From an uncultured Christensenellaceae bacterium (lineage in GTDB: Bacteria; Bacillota; Clostridia; Christensenellales; UBA3700), in assembly GCA_944376205.1 (NCBI GenBank), contig CALWBV010000003.1, forward strand, positions 24,059-88,058: a stretch of DNA of 64,000 nucleotides, written 5' to 3'. Position numbers and translations under genes: made by a program. The notes under the pieces were generated by a model that saw nothing but the letters and a program-made list of their open reading frames with translations, did not search any database and was not told the DNA's origin. Below are positions 3,254-53,186 of the stretch, in pieces (within the stretch, counting starts at the first letter, position 1; every line of letters starts with the position of its first letter).

Positions 3254-4513
3254 ATGTTTTTGGATATAGCTACGATTTTCGTAAAAGCAGGCAACGGCGG
3301 TGACGGTATAGTATCTTTCCATACCGAGAAGTATGTTGCACAGGGCGGTCCCGACGGAGGCGACGGCGGTAACGGAGGAGATATAATCTTCACCGTGGAC
3401 AAGAATGCGTCCACGCTGATAGACTTCAAATTTGCCAAGCATTTCCGTGCAGAGGACGGAGAGAGCGGCGGCGCCAAAAACTGCAAAGGCAAAAGCGGCA
3501 AGCCTCTCTATATAAAAGTGCCCAAGGGTACGATAATCAAGGAAAAAAAGAGCGGCAACGTTCTTGCCGATATGTTTTACGACGACAGTGAATTTGTTTT
3601 GCAAAAAGGCGGACTCGGCGGCAAGGGAAACGCACGTTTTGCTACACCCCAGCGTAAAGCGCCCAGATTCAGCCAAAAAGGCGAAAAAACGCAAGAGATT
3701 GAACTCACTCTCGAACTCAAAACAATTGCCGACGTAGGGCTTGTAGGCTTCCCCAATGTAGGCAAGTCCACTATACTTTCGGTAGTTTCGTCTGCAAAAC
3801 CCAAGATAGCCAACTATCATTTTACGACGCTTACCCCCAATCTGGGCGTAGTAAAATACTATGACAAGGATTTTGTCGTTGCGGATATCCCCGGCCTTAT
3901 CGAAGGTGCCAGCGAAGGAGCGGGACTCGGACATAATTTCTTGAGGCATATCGAGAGAGTACGTCTTATTGTGCACGTAGTCGATATATCGGGAATAGAG
4001 GGCAGAGATCCTTACGAAGACTATCTCACGATAAACAAAGAGTTGGAGAGTTATTCTGCAAAACTCGCTTCGCTTGAGCAGATCATAGTCGCCAACAAAT
4101 GCGATCTTCTCGACGATGAGAGTAAAATAGAAGAATTTGAAAAAAAGGTCGGTCAAAAAGTAATACGACTTTCGGCAGTTTCCAACAGCGGCACAAAGGA
4201 TTTGCTTGCTGCAATAAGCAAAAAACTCGATACCTTGCCCGAAATCGAGCCAATGGAAGTTGTGGAATTCAACGAAAACCGCAACGACAGTACGTCTTTT
4301 ATAATTACCGTAGACGAAGACGGCGTATACGAAGTTCACGGAGGACTTATAAATATGCTTGTGCGTAACGTAGTTCTAGACGACTACGAGTCTTTCAGGT
4401 ATTTCCAGAAGACGCTCAAGGACAGAGGGGTAATAAAAGCGCTTTACAACAACGGCTGTAAAGAAGGCGATACCGTCCGCATAGGAGATATAGAATTTGA
4501 CTTTGTCGACTGA
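3254..4513 (+). CDS. obg: GTPase Obg/CgtA
   Basis: Gly-rich Obg fold (GNGGDGIVSF..GGPDGGDGGNGGDIIF), G1 GFPNVGKST, G3 DIPGLIEGA, and a C-terminal OCT-type domain. Confidence 0.95.
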   Translation: MFLDIATIFVKAGNGGDGIVSFHTEKYVAQGGPDGGDGGNGGDIIFTVDKNASTLIDFKFAKHFRAEDGESGGAKNCKGKSGKPLYIKVPKGTIIKEKKSGNVLADMFYDDSEFVLQKGGLGGKGNARFATPQRKAPRFSQKGEKTQEIELTLELKTIADVGLVGFPNVGKSTILSVVSSAKPKIANYHFTTLTPNLGVVKYYDKDFVVADIPGLIEGASEGAGLGHNFLRHIERVRLIVHVVDISGIEGRDPYEDYLTINKELESYSAKLASLEQIIVANKCDLLDDESKIEEFEKKVGQKVIRLSAVSNSGTKDLLAAISKKLDTLPEIEPMEVVEFNENRNDSTSFIITVDEDGVYEVHGGLINMLVRNVVLDDYESFRYFQKTLKDRGVIKALYNNGCKEGDTVRIGDIEFDFVD

Positions 4514-4530
4514 CAAGAGAGGAGATAAAT

Positions 4531-4821
4531 ATGATGAACAGCAATACAAGAGCAAAATTGAGATCGATAGCAATGAACGTTCAGCCGTCCACGCAGGTGG
4601 GTAAAAACGGCATAAGCGATACGCTTATCAGACAGGTTGACGAACAGCTTCAAAGCAGAGAACTCGTCAAAATAGCGGTACTTAAAAATGCCGAAGTAGA
4701 CGCAGGAGCGGTTGCTTTGGAACTTGCAGAAGCGACCTCGTCCGAAGTCGTGCAGGTAATAGGCAGTAAAATAACGCTTTACAGAGTATCTACAAAAGAC
4801 GGCATAAAGCATGTGCTTTGA
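4531..4821 (+). CDS. yhbY: ribosome-assembly RNA-binding protein YhbY (CRM domain)
   Basis: 96 aa; LRSIAMNVQPSTQVGKNGISD..L..RELVKI pattern; conserved position after obg and before nadD (yqeI position in Bacillus). Confidence 0.85.
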   Translation: MMNSNTRAKLRSIAMNVQPSTQVGKNGISDTLIRQVDEQLQSRELVKIAVLKNAEVDAGAVALELAEATSSEVVQVIGSKITLYRVSTKDGIKHVL

Positions 4822-4841
4822 GTTTACGATAGCGCTCATAT

Positions 4842-4864
4842 AAGCCCCGACAGGGGCTTTTTTT
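4842..4864 (+). terminator. intrinsic terminator of obg-yhbY
   Basis: aagcccc-gaca-ggggctt followed by a T-run, 21 nt after the yhbY stop. Confidence 0.85.
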
Positions 4865-4907
4865 ATAATCTGTCATTGAGATAAAGGATTGAAAATGTTT
4901 TGCCGTG

Positions 4908-4936
4908 TTGACAAAAGATATTTTTTTGCTTATAAT
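4908..4936 (+). promoter_or_regulatory. consensus sigma-A promoter of the tandem-repeat sRNA
   Basis: TTGACA (4908-4913), exactly 17 nt, then TATAAT (4931-4936). Confidence 0.8.
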
Positions 4937-4941
4937 GATAT

Positions 4942-5110
4942 ATCCATTAGAACAACGGGTGTACCGCTGCCCGACACAAAGGCGGAAGCAAGATGTCAGG
5001 GGTGTATCGCTACCCATCATAAAGGTGAAAGTAAGATGTTAGAGGTTAATTCGCTACCCGCCAAAAAGCGAAATTCTAGTGGATTGAAGACGACGAAAGT
5101 CGTCTTTTTT
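4942..5110 (+). ncRNA. unclassified small RNA: 11-bp closing helix around about 2.8 tandem 43-44-nt repeats, with its own terminator
   Basis: atccattagaa (4942-4952) pairs with ttctagtggat (5074-5084). Repeat units lie at 4953-4972 (partial), 4973-5015, 5016-5059 and 5060-5073 (partial). Terminator aagacgac-gaaa-gtcgtctt plus T6 at 5087-5110. No plausible ORF. Confidence 0.65.
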
Positions 5111-5188
5111 AATGAGGTTTTATTCTTTATAGCCGATTTTTTATTGTCAATCCTTCAAGCGTAGTTTTTCAAAATACGAATAGGTTTT

Positions 5189-5926
5189 CTATTTTTTAAT
5201 GAAGCTTCTTATAAGGCATATAATTGCCAAAATAAGGTTGATTGAAGCGAGTATGAGATAGTAATCGGAAAAGGGCGTTACGAGACTTATAGCGACCAAT
5301 AAGAGGCTTACAGCTACAAATCTGAAACCGTTTCTTCTTGTAAAAGCGCTTTCGAATATCAAAGAGAGAAGTTGAATTTTGTTTACCTTTTGATTTTGAA
5401 CTTGAGGCAAGCGATTTAGCGATTTGAGTTTGCGATAGAGCGGCTTGAACGATTCAAAGGTAATCACGACGTCCCCGAATCTTTTTACAAACGATAATGA
5501 TTTTTTATCGGAATTGGTGGTAAGTATTTTTGCTTTTTTTATGCCGTCTTTGGCGCAAATTCTGTAAAGTCTCACGAGAGTATCGGCGGACAGTCTTCCG
5601 TACTTCGTCCATAGAAATACGGCGGTATCGTCGGTAAGCAGATATTCGCCTTTGTCTTCAATGTTTTTGCTGTCTGTTACATCGGATAACAAGGTCTTTG
5701 TATAATCTTCGCCTTGCCATATGAGATACGTTATGAAGTTGCGGTAACTCATAGCGTGTTTTTTGTCTCTGAAAAAGATTTTGCAAATACTTCCGATTAT
5801 GACGAAAGTTGTCAGCATGGAAGTAACAAGTTGCATTGCAAAGGGCATTGCAACAAAACTCAATAGTATGTATGTTATGATAAAGATTATGATAGTCAGC
5901 AATATCACGTCAAAAAAATATGCCAT
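5189..5926 (-). CDS. hypothetical integral membrane protein (N-terminal TM helices, about 150-aa soluble domain, C-terminal TM pair)
   Basis: Long ORF with clear hydrophobic segments (YFFDVILLTIIIFIITYILLSFV, FRFVAVSLLLVAISLV, YYLILASINLILAIICLI). Start is uncertain: 5926 was chosen because a nadD promoter-like TTGCTA-17-TAAAAT sits at about 5975-6003. Alternatives 6019 and 6151 would overlap the nadD region. No family recognised. Confidence 0.5.
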   Translation of the reverse strand: MAYFFDVILLTIIIFIITYILLSFVAMPFAMQLVTSMLTTFVIIGSICKIFFRDKKHAMSYRNFITYLIWQGEDYTKTLLSDVTDSKNIEDKGEYLLTDDTAVFLWTKYGRLSADTLVRLYRICAKDGIKKAKILTTNSDKKSLSFVKRFGDVVITFESFKPLYRKLKSLNRLPQVQNQKVNKIQLLSLIFESAFTRRNGFRFVAVSLLLVAISLVTPFSDYYLILASINLILAIICLIRSFIKK

Positions 5927-6025
5927 ATTCGAATTGTAGACAAAAGACAGTAAAATATACAACGCTGTCAATATTCTTGCTAATTTCGCAGATTTTGTGT
6001 AAAATAATATCGAGGTCATACGAAT

Positions 6026-7129
6026 ATGATTATAATTTTCGGCGGGGCTTTCAATCCCGTACACGACGAACATGTCAATATGATAAAATATCTTTTGGAC
6101 AGAAAGGAAGTTGAAAAGGTGGTAGTATTGCCTTCTTTCAATCCTCCGCACAAAAGCTGTCCTACGTCATACTCGCAGCGCAGAGAAATGTTACAATTGG
6201 CGCTACGCGGTATCGACCGAATTGAGATATGCGATTATGAAAACACCGACAATAAAAAGCATTATACGGTAGAAACTCTTCCTTATCTCAAAAATATATA
6301 CAAGGATATTGCGTTTGTCATAGGCGGAGACAGTCTCGAAGCGCTTGACAAATGGAAAAATCCCCAGAAAATAATAAAAATCTGTCCGTTGTACGTGTTT
6401 ACAAGAGGAAAGAGCGAGGGCTTTGACAAAGCGCTTGAATATTGGAGAAGTAAGGGGGCGGATATCGTAGTTTGCGATTATCACCCCGATGACGTGTCGT
6501 CGACGCTGATACGTTACAATATAATGCTGGGCGTCTATGACGATATCAATCCCGACGTGGCGGAATATATCAGAGAAAATAAACTTTACGATTCGTTCAG
6601 AGGTATTCTCGATAAACTCAAAGAATCTCTTATTCCCAAGACATACGAGCATAGTCTGCGCACGGCAAAATATGCTTTGAGACTCAATTACAAGCTGGCG
6701 TTGGGACTTGATTATGACAAAGTTTTTCTTGCGGGAGTATTGCACGACTGCGCAAAGAATATGTGCGCCGAACCTCATGATACGCAATGCGTTCCGAGCG
6801 ACAGTATAGGTTCGCCTGTCGAACATCAGTTTTTAGGAGCGATAGTTGCAAAAAACGGATACGGCATCGAAGATAAAGACGTGCTTAATGCGATAAAGTA
6901 TCACACGACGGGTAAAAAAGAGATGTCTCCGCTTGAGAAATTGATTTTTTGCAGCGATATGCTTGAAGAAAAAAGAGATTTTGAGGGTGTGGAGGAGCTG
7001 CGAAAAAGTATAGAGAAATCCCTTGACGAGGGGTACAGAGATTGCGTATTGCATCAATATGCATATTTGAGTGCAAGAGGCGGCGAAATTTATCCTTTGA
7101 CTTTGCAGGCGGTTGAAGGGGTAAAGTAA
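6026..7129 (+). CDS. nadD: fused nicotinate-nucleotide adenylyltransferase (NadD) and YqeK-type HD phosphohydrolase
   Basis: N-terminal GGAFNPVHDEH nucleotidyltransferase motif. C-terminal HD domain (HSLRTAKYA...GVLHDCAK...KYHTTG), which is a separate yqeK gene in Bacillus. Confidence 0.85.
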   Translation: MIIIFGGAFNPVHDEHVNMIKYLLDRKEVEKVVVLPSFNPPHKSCPTSYSQRREMLQLALRGIDRIEICDYENTDNKKHYTVETLPYLKNIYKDIAFVIGGDSLEALDKWKNPQKIIKICPLYVFTRGKSEGFDKALEYWRSKGADIVVCDYHPDDVSSTLIRYNIMLGVYDDINPDVAEYIRENKLYDSFRGILDKLKESLIPKTYEHSLRTAKYALRLNYKLALGLDYDKVFLAGVLHDCAKNMCAEPHDTQCVPSDSIGSPVEHQFLGAIVAKNGYGIEDKDVLNAIKYHTTGKKEMSPLEKLIFCSDMLEEKRDFEGVEELRKSIEKSLDEGYRDCVLHQYAYLSARGGEIYPLTLQAVEGVK

Positions 7130-7894: not shown

Positions 7895-9595
7895 TTATTT
7901 TTCTTCATCCATTGCACTAAACAAATCATAATACGTGTTGTATTTGTCGAGTTTTAATCCATCTACAGTTACTTCATTATAATCTTGGCTATCATAATTT
8001 GTTTTTACCGCACTTAAAATAGCATCTATTACTTCTAGATTTGTTTGATCTTTGCCATTGTTATTATATTTAAATGATGTTGTAAATTCTGAACCATCAA
8101 CATTAACAATAACAGCAGAAATTTCATAATCATTTTTGCTGCCTATCATTGCTCTTGCAATGTCATTATTTGAAAGATATACATTATTAACTTCATAAAA
8201 TTCTCTTAAATTAGAATAATCAGTATAAGTCATTAAACTTTCATTACTAATGTCTGAGATGATTTTTTGCAATTCTCCATCAGTCATTTCATTATCATCA
8301 AGATAATCTTTAATATTTTGGACACTTGCAATTTGCAGACAATTAATCGTTTCAACTAATCCATCCACAATTGAATGTCTTACAGAATAAATTTTTATAT
8401 TATTTATTTCCGCATTAAAATTTATTATTACCTTTTTAACTTTAGAGTTGTTTGGCGAAATATTTGTAAAATCTATTTTTGTTAATTGTTGTTCTTCAAA
8501 TGTTTTTACCAAATACTCTTGTACAGATTGTTCAATCAAATTTAAATCGTTAAGTAAAATATCAGAATATTCTTTAGCAATAGTTGATTGATTTACAAGA
8601 GAAGGAATATCACTGCTTGATAGATCAATATTGGCAAATAAATTTTCCATATATTGTTCTATTATTTCTTGTTCAAGTTCCTTTCCATCATCAGCGCCTA
8701 AAATTTCTTCTGCACTTTTTGGCAACTTGCTAACATCTGCGACAATTTCTTCTTTAGTGAACTTTTCAAAAGCGTTTTTATATATTTCTAAACGCTTTAG
8801 CGCTTCTTCTCCATTTACTTTTGCGTTCCAATTTGCAGAAGCTTTAACTAATGAATTAATTTTATTTTTAACATCGTTTTGCGCTTCAGTAATATTTTGA
8901 ACGTAATCTTCTTTAATTACATTTATTTCTTTATCATATGTGTTAATTTGAGAATTAATAGCTGAAGCAATACTCCAAATCCCCCCTACTGTTGCAGCCA
9001 CAGCAACAACTGTCGATAAAGTGATCAGAGTTGCGTTAGTTTTTGGAAAATATAAATATAATGCTTTGTTGAGTAATAAATTCCAAACAGTCAATCCGCT
9101 TTCAAGATCATCTAAACTGCAAAACAATGTCTTTGCTTTTGTTTTTCCTGATTTGAATATAATATCTTGAGTTGTTTTATGAATAAGCTTAAGTAATTGT
9201 TTTTCATTATTTTTATCAAAATATTCTATTTCTAATTCGGCTTGTTTCTTTGATTTTACTTTTGGGGTATTATCTTTGTTAAGTTTACCAGTATTAACCT
9301 TTACTTCTCCATGGCGAATAAAAGTTATTGCCTTGTCAAAATCATCCTTTGACAAACGTGAAATATATTCACCATTTTTCAAATAAATACTATTTTTTAC
9401 AGCATATTCTAAATTGTCTATATTGTCTTCAATAATCTCTTTTGTTTTTTGTAATGTTGACTTAAATGTTTTGCTTTTTATGAGTCCTTCAAGATTTTCT
9501 CTGAGCTTTTTTATAGTAACTAAATACTCTTCGATAACTTTATTTTTTCTTTCCTCTTCTTTATCGTATTTTAACCAACCAAGTTCTTTTGCCAT
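7895..9595 (-). CDS. orphan hypothetical protein, 566 aa, N/K/I/E-rich, one central TM segment followed by a predicted coiled coil
   Basis: Uninterrupted ORF with a strong RBS (AAAAGGAGAG, 4 nt, ATG) and its own terminator. TM segment LITLSTVVAVAATVGGIWSIASAI. Heptad-like stretch NSQINTYDKEINVIKEDYVQNITEAQNDVKNKINSL. Visibly more AT-rich than the flanks. No domain recognised. Confidence 0.75.
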   Translation of the reverse strand: MAKELGWLKYDKEEERKNKVIEEYLVTIKKLRENLEGLIKSKTFKSTLQKTKEIIEDNIDNLEYAVKNSIYLKNGEYISRLSKDDFDKAITFIRHGEVKVNTGKLNKDNTPKVKSKKQAELEIEYFDKNNEKQLLKLIHKTTQDIIFKSGKTKAKTLFCSLDDLESGLTVWNLLLNKALYLYFPKTNATLITLSTVVAVAATVGGIWSIASAINSQINTYDKEINVIKEDYVQNITEAQNDVKNKINSLVKASANWNAKVNGEEALKRLEIYKNAFEKFTKEEIVADVSKLPKSAEEILGADDGKELEQEIIEQYMENLFANIDLSSSDIPSLVNQSTIAKEYSDILLNDLNLIEQSVQEYLVKTFEEQQLTKIDFTNISPNNSKVKKVIINFNAEINNIKIYSVRHSIVDGLVETINCLQIASVQNIKDYLDDNEMTDGELQKIISDISNESLMTYTDYSNLREFYEVNNVYLSNNDIARAMIGSKNDYEISAVIVNVDGSEFTTSFKYNNNGKDQTNLEVIDAILSAVKTNYDSQDYNEVTVDGLKLDKYNTYYDLFSAMDEEK

Positions 9596-11325: not shown

Positions 11326-11332
11326 AAAAGTA

Positions 11333-11454
11333 TCCTTTTCCTATCCAGACTATACTGTCGGTACAAGAATTTCACTTGTTCGGCGCCGTATAAAAAAATT
11401 TGCGGCGTTTGCGGACTTTACCGCCGGTGAGGAATTTCACCTGCCCTCAAAGAA
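11333..11454 (-). promoter_or_regulatory. FMN riboswitch (RFN element) controlling ribU
   Basis: The minus strand reads ..gagggcaggtgaaattcctcaccggcggtaaagtccgc...gaacaagtgaaattcttgtaccgacagtatagtctggataggaaaagga, matching the RFN core. The 3' strand of P1 (aaagga) is also the ribU Shine-Dalgarno, 8 nt before the ATG. Confidence 0.9.
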
Positions 11455-11470
11455 TTATTTGATTATCGAC

Positions 11471-35367: not shown

Positions 35368-35709
35368 TCAATAAAACCCCAGACTTATCATAAGAGCCTG
35401 ATTAATCTTTTGCATGGTGTCGACGGGTACTTCGCCAATTTTGTCCTTGAGTCTTTGTTTGTCAAGGGTACGGATTTGTTCGAGCAGTACGACGGAATCT
35501 TTTTGAAGTCCGTATTCTTTTGCCGATAGTTCGATATGTGTGGGTAACTTTGCTTTGTTTATTTGGCTTGTTACCGCTGCGGCGATAATGGTAGGACTGT
35601 ATTTGTTGCCGACGTCGTTTTGCACTACCAGTACGGGACGAATACCACCTTGTTCACTGCCTACGACGGGACTGAGGTCCGCATAATACAATTCTCCTCT
35701 TTTTATCAT
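35368..35709 (-). CDS. mazF: MazF/EndoA (PemK-family) mRNA interferase toxin, with no adjacent antitoxin gene
   Basis: [61 protein letters not shown]...[13 protein letters not shown] is collinear with B. subtilis EndoA as I recall it. GGAGA RBS before ATG 35709. The 33-codon upstream extension in the track was rejected. Confidence 0.9.
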
Positions 35710-52920: not shown

Positions 52921-53186
52921 CTGTGCATCTGTTGTCGATAGTGACTACCCAAGCGTTACCAAAACAGTTAACTCCTCCAAAGCTACCTTGTGGCACATCA
53001 AACGGTCTGCTTAATGCTGCTACGGTCAAGTCCTGACATGGTTCACAGTGAATGATTGCACAAGACCTTGGTATCAACATCACTTATTAAGGGCAGGCCT
53101 CACATAGCCAAAACCTCGAACAGCGTTCAGTCCTGCTATTGCGGATTGCAGGTACAGGGCACCGCAAGCTCCCCACCTAGCACAGC
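52921..53186 (-). ncRNA. ffs: signal recognition particle RNA, long Bacillus type (about 266 nt, with an Alu-like domain)
   Basis: The minus strand reads gctgtgctaggtggggagcttgcggtgccctgtacctgcaatccgc...gaaccatgtcaggacttgaccgtagcagcattaagcag...taacgcttgggtagtcactatcgacaacagatgcacag. This is collinear with B. subtilis scRNA as I recall it, including the helix-8 GUCAGG...AGCAGC motif. The ends are approximate. Confidence 0.85.

Follow-up and report, generated by a model that had tools for sequence, protein, structure and literature searches.

A probable ToxI-type antitoxin RNA gene without an adjacent toxin gene in the chromosome of an uncultured Christensenellaceae bacterium

What is the place of a type III antitoxin RNA in a chromosomal region where no toxin gene accompanies it? 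This question is raised by a small RNA gene at positions 4908-5110 of a 64,000-nucleotide (nt) stretch of DNA, hereafter the window, which was taken from contig CALWBV010000003.1 (assembly GCA_944376205.1, positions 24,059 to 88,058, forward strand) of an uncultured Christensenellaceae bacterium. The gene has the layout of a type III antitoxin, that is, a promoter, a short array of tandem repeats and a terminator, and in other strains of the same species its site is occupied by a second, very different version; the version of the window is called allele A and the other one allele B. From sequence comparison and predicted folding, it is very probable that the locus derives from the ToxI class, the antitoxin RNAs of the toxIN family, and the 64-kb window contains neither a ToxN gene nor the remnant of one. 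More tentatively, the RNA may be a toxin-less member of the ToxI family which acts in trans as an antitoxin or decoy.

The gene is regarded as a separate transcription unit because yhbY, which lies upstream, has its own terminator at 4842-4859. Its promoter is the sole match to all 12 consensus positions of TTGACA-17-TATAAT within 4400-6400, and the 169-nt stretch behind it folds with a minimum free energy (MFE) of -50.6 kcal/mol (z = -3.4), which none of 200 shuffled sequences attained. Both the MFE and the centroid structures contain the terminator and a closing helix of 11 base pairs (bp), including one G-U pair, which encloses the tandem array. There is no credible open reading frame (ORF) within 4942-5110, and a small-protein gene was rejected, since the ORFs of 91 and 76 amino acids (aa) across the locus either have their start before the promoter or cross the repeats in antisense orientation.

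The array (4957-5073) was recovered by Tandem Repeats Finder (TRF) with a period of 43, 2.7 copies and a score of 113, and it is the only one in the window with a period above 24. An ungapped comparison of its first two units (4957-4999 and 5000-5042) gives 79% identity, and behind them lies a partial third copy, the tail of which is replaced by the closing helix. The units conform to the template GGUG-NN-(stem 2a)-YRCC-loop-(stem 2b), in which GGUG pairs with YRCC to give stem 1, and the two halves of stem 2 are complementary at four of four positions in each of the three units, the second half being separated from stem 1 by 9-10 nt. From unit 1 to unit 2, one stem 2 pair changes in a compensatory manner from C-G to U-A and another from G-C to G-U. 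Moreover, in strain L007 the equivalent of position 5043 is changed from A to G, resulting in GGGGUU, by which, in our reading, stem 1 of unit 3 could gain a pair. The units are thus predicted to be H-type pseudoknots with the order of elements and the loop lengths described for ToxI, in which two stems of 3-4 nt interleave and the successive loops are a few nt long, very short (0-2 nt), and longer and variable (PMC3401426). ToxI units that can be aligned are reported to measure 31-46 nt (PMC3401426), and the units of allele A (43 nt) and allele B (37 nt) both fall within this range.

An earlier inspection of the same DNA, made without database searches and called here the sequence-only reading, had already described the promoter, the 11-bp helix with one G-U pair and the terminator, and all of them were found where it had placed them, as was the tandem array under the helix. 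The ten differences that it counted between the two full units were borne out as well, with the correction that nine of the ten are transitions when the units are read in the GGUG register, as against the seven of ten that it gave in another register. The hairpin GGGUG...URCCC that it noticed in each unit is real and corresponds to stem 1 of the pseudoknot. The positions of the gene, its parts and its neighbours are collected in Table 1.

Table 1. The RNA gene, its parts, the exchangeable cassette and the neighbouring genes, in coordinates of the window.
Feature	Position	Strand	Remarks
Sigma-70-type promoter, TTGACA-17-TATAAT	4908..4936	+	12/12 consensus match
Allelic cassette	4917..5131		In allele-B strains an unalignable sequence of ~360 nt instead; both sides ~99% identical
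Predicted primary transcript, ~165-170 nt	4942..5110	+	Leader, three ToxI-type units, closing helix, terminator; from promoter/terminator positions and fold
Closing helix, 5' arm, AUCCAUUAGAA	4942..4952	+	Pairs with 5074-5084 in MFE and centroid
Unit 1	4957..4999	+	Stem 1 GGUG 4958-4961/UGCC 4968-4971; stem 2 CCGC 4964-4967/GCGG 4982-4985; loop 10 nt
Unit 2	5000..5042	+	Stem 1 GGUG 5001-5004/UACC 5011-5014; stem 2 UCGC 5007-5010/GUGA 5025-5028; loop 10 nt
Unit 3, shortened	5043..5073	+	Stem 1 weakened (GGU/ACC); stem 2 UCGC 5051-5054/GCGA 5068-5071; loop 9 nt
Closing helix, 3' arm, UUCUAGUGGAU	5074..5084	+	Same fold
Intrinsic terminator	5087..5110	+	8-bp GC-rich stem AAGACGAC-GAAA-GTCGTCTT, GAAA loop, T run
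Convergent membrane ORF, 245/320 aa	5189..6151	-	No Pfam or PADLOC match; beside yhbY in sister species too
Fused nadD (cytidylyltransferase-like)-yqeK (HD domain), one 367-aa ORF	6026..7129	+	Next + strand gene, 916 nt off

The site was compared in 16 public contigs which encode an identical or 99%-identical YhbY and which represent one uncultured Christensenellaceae species. Allele A occurs in three of the 16 loci and allele B in the other 13, and an empty or disrupted site was found in none of these contigs. The -35 box is common to both alleles, which diverge just after the shared TTGACAAAA; allele B then has its own perfect TTGACA-17-TATAAT in the same place, three 37-nt units of the sequence GGUGUUCCRCCGCCAUAUAAGUGAGGAGCAGCAAAGA and its own terminator. 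Judged by sequence, therefore, a promoter and a Rho-independent terminator of its own, as in ToxI genes, are present in both alleles. No equivalent of the 11-bp closing helix was found in allele B. The polymorphisms among the allele B sequences sit on positions that stay paired, as A-U or G-U, when read by us in the GUG register. As for the flanks, they differ by ~1% between any two strains and the left side does not sort by allele, so the cassette is a polymorphism within one recombining species. Allele B strains (L002-L010) also carry ~190 extra non-coding nt after the terminator (for example, 3570-3760 of L004), in which neither a ToxN remnant nor a significant database match was detected.

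The relationship to ToxI was approached from the RNA side with a pattern of two successive units common to both alleles, GGTGTWYCRCYRCC-N20-32-GGTGTWYCRCYRCC, by which metagenome and viral contigs were scanned; ToxN was detected by phmmer with the ToxN of plasmid pECA1039 and then by a profile built from its matches, and the loci were tested for adjacency to it. The pattern was found at no fewer than 128 loci, for which we estimate less than one match by chance, and in at least 66 of these a ToxN homologue lies directly downstream on the same strand. About half of the matches do not represent RNA arrays. Where ToxN was absent, the match was in most cases a proline-rich coding repeat (located in a long ORF, or with a period of 18-30, 72 or 90 nt), an array truncated at the end of a contig, or an RNA array without a toxin. 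Of the 57 distinct units linked to ToxN, 43 show full complementarity in stem 2; when stem 2a was permuted among the units, this number was 18.5 on average and never above 27. A scan of viral contigs for a single unit with a 16-mer of allele A was discarded because its 77 matches were close to the chance estimate.

Because the scan pattern was derived from this locus, a second set was assembled starting from the toxin, and tblastn of ToxN proteins against plasmids and phages gave twelve ToxN loci. All of the first nine have tandem arrays of 34-41-nt units and a terminator just upstream of toxN, and the ToxI template fits eight of the nine plasmid arrays of this first batch. In an alignment of 13 units from seven of these plasmid arrays and from pECA1039, covariation was seen at each of the four pairs of stem 2, 94% of the cells are paired, and none of 500 shuffles reaches the observed covariation. 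A model, R1, was built from the short-loop ToxI arrays found through toxN, and it recognizes allele B with 22.2 bits (E value, 0.0026; second match, 15.8 bits). The genuine long-loop ToxI of Enterococcus faecalis pGTC3 received only 13.6 bits from R1, which is thus blind to the long-loop class, and for this reason a second model, R2, was based on two long-loop arrays, those of E. faecalis pGTC3 and Lactococcus lactis p001F. Unit 2 of allele A tops the 64-kb window with R2, at 16.7 bits and, by a rough calibration, an E value of 0.069, the next match being at 8.9 bits; true ToxI arrays of other subfamilies score 12-16 bits with the same model. In addition, the pGTC3 array compared with 5097 windows scores best at the allele A locus (27, others at most 25), and the units of allele A are 65-72% identical to ToxN-linked 42-nt units from the gut. 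By blastn, allele B matched the toxI array on Bacillus mycoides plasmid p15 (73% identity across 97 nt; E, 2e-4), where an annotated ToxN lies ~100 nt downstream of the matched array. Judged in this way, membership in the ToxI class of sequence and structure appears solid for allele B and good but borderline for allele A. The type III antitoxin architecture suspected at the outset is therefore borne out and sharpened to the pseudoknot template of the toxIN family.

Rfam, on the other hand, is of little use for such RNAs. With Rfam 15 nothing at the locus reached the gathering score, including 6S RNA, preQ1 and other known small RNAs or riboswitches, and at E values up to 10 there was only snoR64a noise (13.8 bits, E 7.1). 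The same release also fails to detect ToxI on pECA1039 (L260) and on seven further sources of ToxI or ToxI-like arrays, among which are B. mycoides p15 and five ToxN-linked loci; it is silent on L267, L157, L239, L165, L152 and L213, which have ToxN-linked arrays. Since Rfam misses the founding ToxI locus, its silence here carries no weight: the search that the sequence-only reading had suggested turned up no known family that would refute it, yet it is uninformative as a test for ToxI. Surveys that start from the RNA and are based on Rfam will miss type III antitoxins.

Among known systems, allele A is most like the long-loop or "group II" toxIN arrays, which are represented by E. faecalis pGTC3 (41 nt x 3), L. 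lactis p001F (41 nt x 3.8) and a class from the human gut (42 nt x 2; for example, L165 and L216). They have in common units of 41-43 nt, the core GGUG-NN-YCRC-UACC, a 10-12-nt A-rich loop before the 4-nt stem 2b, (A)AAGGUG(G/A)A, and two to four units before the terminator; in the best local alignment of unit 1 with a pGTC3 unit, ~26 of 33 columns match by our count. However, the long-loop arrays lie on plasmids or mobile contigs with ToxN within ~10-100 nt, whereas here the locus is a housekeeping region of the chromosome without a toxin, identity between the units is no more than 79% and the array is closed by a helix of 11 bp. Allele B is closer to the toxIN of Bacillus, with which it shares GGUGUUYCACCGCCAUA..AG.GUGAGG (B. 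mycoides p15, 35-nt units), but its units are of 37 nt, there are only three copies, the tails are different and there is no toxN. The characterized ToxI of B. thuringiensis has 34-nt units. The founding member, the ToxI of Pectobacterium atrosepticum on pECA1039, has 36-nt units (5.6 copies by TRF), and its unit was confirmed there at 100% with an annotated ToxN after it. Its GGUG-AU-UUGC-UACC-loop-GCAG represents the same template and its promoter-repeats-terminator layout is that of this locus; it differs in that its loop is shorter, its repeats are almost identical and toxN follows at once. The pseudoknot of P. atrosepticum ToxI has been described (PMC3401426) and its published complex with ToxN is a heterohexamer. 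The other type III antitoxins, CptI and TenpI, have a similar layout of promoter, repeat and terminator with units of ~40-45 nt, but they do not align with ToxI (PMC3401426) and the CptI pseudoknot is distinctly different from the ToxI fold (PMC5086642); because no gene follows and the units here bear the ToxI core motif and follow its template, identity with either was rejected.

In canonical loci (at least 66 ToxN-linked ones), toxN starts within ~100 nt of the array, and here a toxN gene (PF13958, ToxN/AbiQ) immediately downstream on the same strand is lacking. No + strand ORF directly follows the RNA gene. A ToxN profile built from 55 sequences and run with filters off against six-frame fragments of 20 aa or more, from the window and 54 related loci, gave nothing better than E 1.4, and a PADLOC scan of 52 ORFs from the window was likewise negative for type III toxins, ToxN and AbiQ included. 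No CptN or TenpN was reported by PADLOC, or by Pfam on selected ORFs, in searches which included no dedicated profile for either. A search for ToxN proteins gave 356 homologues, and no Christensenellaceae name is among the matches listed, a result which carries weight in neither direction. The gene order is obg-yhbY-[RNA]-nadD/yqeK-rsfS, a housekeeping context which is syntenic in sister species, and Pfam identifies the neighbours as Obg, YhbY, NadD-YqeK and RsfS. Accordingly, the description of the surroundings given in the sequence-only reading (no toxin beside the RNA, no + strand gene next to it, a convergent membrane-protein gene, and nadD some 900 nt away) agrees with what was found.

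The membrane ORF could be excluded as the toxin because it occurs in sister species without the array. In the window no terminator is predicted on the - strand at 5111-5188, between its stop (5189) and the RNA gene, so its transcripts may read antisense into the array; in some sister species (such as L011 and L013) the same spacer has an apparent terminator hairpin. The sister species, whose YhbY proteins are 91, 82, 71 and 65% identical, keep the same convergent membrane gene, and their spacer contains a terminator only, with no repeats and no match to R1 or R2. The sequence-only reading had counted an absence of the repeats from syntenic loci of relatives as evidence against it, and such an absence is seen between the species and not within this one, where all 16 sites are occupied. 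The occupancy within the species points to recent acquisition and maintenance rather than to an artefact. The case for maintenance, which is made up of consensus promoters, intact terminators, no empty site, differences that preserve pairing and, in our reading, polymorphisms of allele B that leave the pairing intact, is suggestive but not strong.

If the RNA is functional, the mechanism that we tentatively propose is as follows. An RNA of ~165 nt would be made constitutively and would fold into three pseudoknots, which in allele A would be clamped by the 11-bp terminal helix. It would act in trans by binding an endoribonuclease of the ToxN family made elsewhere, either at another locus of the genome or on an incoming plasmid or prophage that carries toxIN; ToxN would possibly cut the RNA into units, and its active site would be occluded as it is by ToxI. 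A precedent for antitoxin without toxin is found in the escape mutants of phage TE, in which a toxin-less mimic of ToxI, pseudo-ToxI, neutralizes ToxN made elsewhere (PMC3475682). Both have ToxI-like repeats without an accompanying toxin gene, but pseudo-ToxI is phage-borne and defeats the abortive infection of the host, whereas the present locus is chromosomal and lies between yhbY and nadD. There is no sign that the locus is part of a phage genome, since the context is of a housekeeping nature and neither allele has a match in the phage collection or the viral contigs (blastn of allele A against phage and plasmid collections, blastn of allele B against phages and a scan of viral contigs with a 23-mer of allele B all gave none). 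Pairing of ToxI with ToxN is reported to be selective, with no cross-talk of the Pectobacterium system with that of Bacillus (PMC5086642). Alleles A and B are similar to separate subclasses of ToxI, so that each would act on toxins of its own and they would neutralize different ToxN variants, if the reported selectivity holds here. A further step, unlikely as it now stands, is chromosomal immunity by an antitoxin alone, in which a fixed and constitutively expressed ToxI decoy would disarm the ToxN of plasmids or prophages and the A and B specificities would be kept by balancing selection against different toxIN variants in circulation; the RNA would then be an immunity gene which provides anti-addiction or anti-abortive-infection from the side of the host. 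Chromosomal antitoxins of type II with an anti-addiction role are known, for example chromosomal ccd against the ccd of the F plasmid. They are likewise chromosomal and could neutralize the toxin of an incoming element, but they are proteins and usually paired with a toxin, whereas here an RNA stands alone and its function is inferred.

Several observations weigh against this reading of a trans-acting ToxI-family RNA. No partner ToxN was identified within the 64 kb examined. R1 gives allele A only 11 bits, which is at the level of noise, and the support from R2 is weak. The closing helix is seen in one sequence type and is not a feature of ToxI. All eight pairs are kept between units 1 and 2, with a chance probability of 0.09-0.18, and the covariation within the locus that these two units show is only suggestive. 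Unit 3 of allele A has a weak stem 1 and no tail, and stem 2 of units 1 and 2 of allele B pairs at three of four positions, both of which are compatible with decay. Finally, since the array is missing from the sister species, it is dispensable for the lineage.

The main rival is that the locus is a decaying remnant, that is, a toxIN module which has lost its toxin gene and of which the array and a strong promoter linger without function. This we consider possible, though on balance rather unlikely. The absence of the toxin by both profile and PADLOC speaks for it, the sister species without the array make the element young and dispensable, and the truncated unit 3 of allele A and the imperfect stem 2 of allele B would fit decay. 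Moreover, decay of this kind does occur: at L135 (845-1371), a ToxI array with three intact units precedes a toxN that frameshifts have split into fragments. This shows directly that an array can persist after its toxin is lost, and several other arrays are without ToxN. Against it, however, no fragment of toxN was found in either allele even with filters off, the promoters match at 12 of 12 positions and the terminators are intact in both alleles, none of the 16 contigs has lost the element, and the differences between units keep the pairing. In addition, two very different toxin-less arrays at one site would require two independent clean deletions or a replacement event.

The second rival is exaptation, in which a scaffold derived from ToxI would now serve MazF, another RNA-binding protein, or antisense or transcriptional interference with the membrane gene; like a non-ToxI origin, it is less likely than the remnant, and we hold it to be improbable. 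The closing helix of allele A, foreign to ToxI, would stabilize an unprocessed RNA, the units have grown apart in sequence where homogenization might have kept them alike, and antisense reading from the membrane gene meets no predicted terminator. The MazF ORF (35368-35709, - strand) is a genuine PemK/MazF (Pfam E, 1.8e-37), and it lacks an adjoining antitoxin-sized ORF, both in the 270-nt AT-rich region upstream and downstream, as the sequence-only reading had stated; it had also stated that ToxN is reported to share the Kid/MazF fold. The upstream neighbour of MazF is a divergent transporter gene. No finding, however, ties the RNA to MazF, a link which is speculative, and the tails, which in ToxI make the protein contacts, differ greatly between alleles A and B on a genome that is ~99% identical, which fits poorly with a single conserved partner. 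A sponge of the CsrA type was dropped because the GGA motifs are not common to both alleles, being present in the units of allele B and in only one unit of allele A.

It is very improbable that the array is unrelated to ToxI and resembles it by convergence or chance, as a tandem riboswitch-like pseudoknot or another small RNA: the lack of an Rfam match and the noise-level R1 score of allele A would agree with this, and the riboswitches preQ1-I and SAM-II are also H-type pseudoknots with A-rich loops, but there is no following gene for a riboswitch to control (for which reason a riboswitch was dropped), Rfam and R1 fail equally on the pECA1039 and pGTC3 antitoxins, respectively, the motif retrieves ToxN-linked arrays far beyond chance, allele B at the same site with an apparently homologous promoter is significantly ToxI-like, and both R2 and the pGTC3 comparison rank allele A best in the window.

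The reading that we prefer, though tentatively, is therefore still that of a toxin-less ToxI-family RNA which may act in trans, and the suggestion of an orphan or trans-acting antitoxin-like RNA made in the sequence-only reading is supported to the extent that ToxI-type units stand without a toxin in cis. If it is functional, it would show that antitoxin RNAs can spread and come under selection independently of a toxin, and they could then protect against addiction modules or the toxins of abortive infection, in parallel to the pseudo-ToxI mimicry of phages. As an immunity gene of the kind considered above, it would, to our knowledge, be the first case in a bacterial chromosome of a type III antitoxin that lacks its toxin and yet has its own function. 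If it is a remnant, it documents the decay of a toxIN module with an array that has outlived its toxin. Full-text literature searches found the phage pseudo-ToxI (PMC3475682) and no report of a toxin-less chromosomal ToxI.

Other toxin-less ToxI-like arrays came to light in the same scan, and those from the gut suggest that this could be a recurrent class. Four human-gut contigs (L156, L160, L161 and L208) have four 39-nt units, GGTGTTCCACTACCAAACAAATGTGGGGCTTTAAAATCA, with a covarying stem 2, a terminator and a convergent gene; they score up to 31 bits with R1 and have no ToxN in up to 7.9 kb downstream. ToxI-like arrays without ToxN were also found in front of a HicA-like ORF (L137), between Fic and resolvase genes (L230), and as a composite of seven units of two subtypes, 4+3 (L192 and L202). 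At L167 and L179, an ORF of 223 aa with no Pfam or ToxN match occupies the place where the sibling loci L168, L173 and L237 have ToxN, and it may be a replacement of the toxin. Furthermore, the viral contigs L252 (2738-2919) and L257 (615-687) of IMG/VR contain ToxI-like units (up to 30.5 bits with R1) without ToxN in the stretch examined, and they may be candidates for natural pseudo-ToxI decoys of phages. A mixed-unit antitoxin of an unusual kind precedes an annotated ToxN on Clostridium perfringens plasmid p5 (L277, ~300-440), where 55-nt units, which have a hairpin inserted in the long loop, alternate with a 34-nt unit.

The window has some further features apart from the RNA gene. An ORF of 566 aa at 7895-9595 on the - strand has no Pfam or PADLOC match. 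The genuine Rfam matches of the window, a flavin mononucleotide (FMN) riboswitch at 11329-11458 (- strand, 98.9 bits) and the large bacterial signal recognition particle (SRP) RNA at 52921-53185 (- strand, 168.7 bits), are both ordinary.

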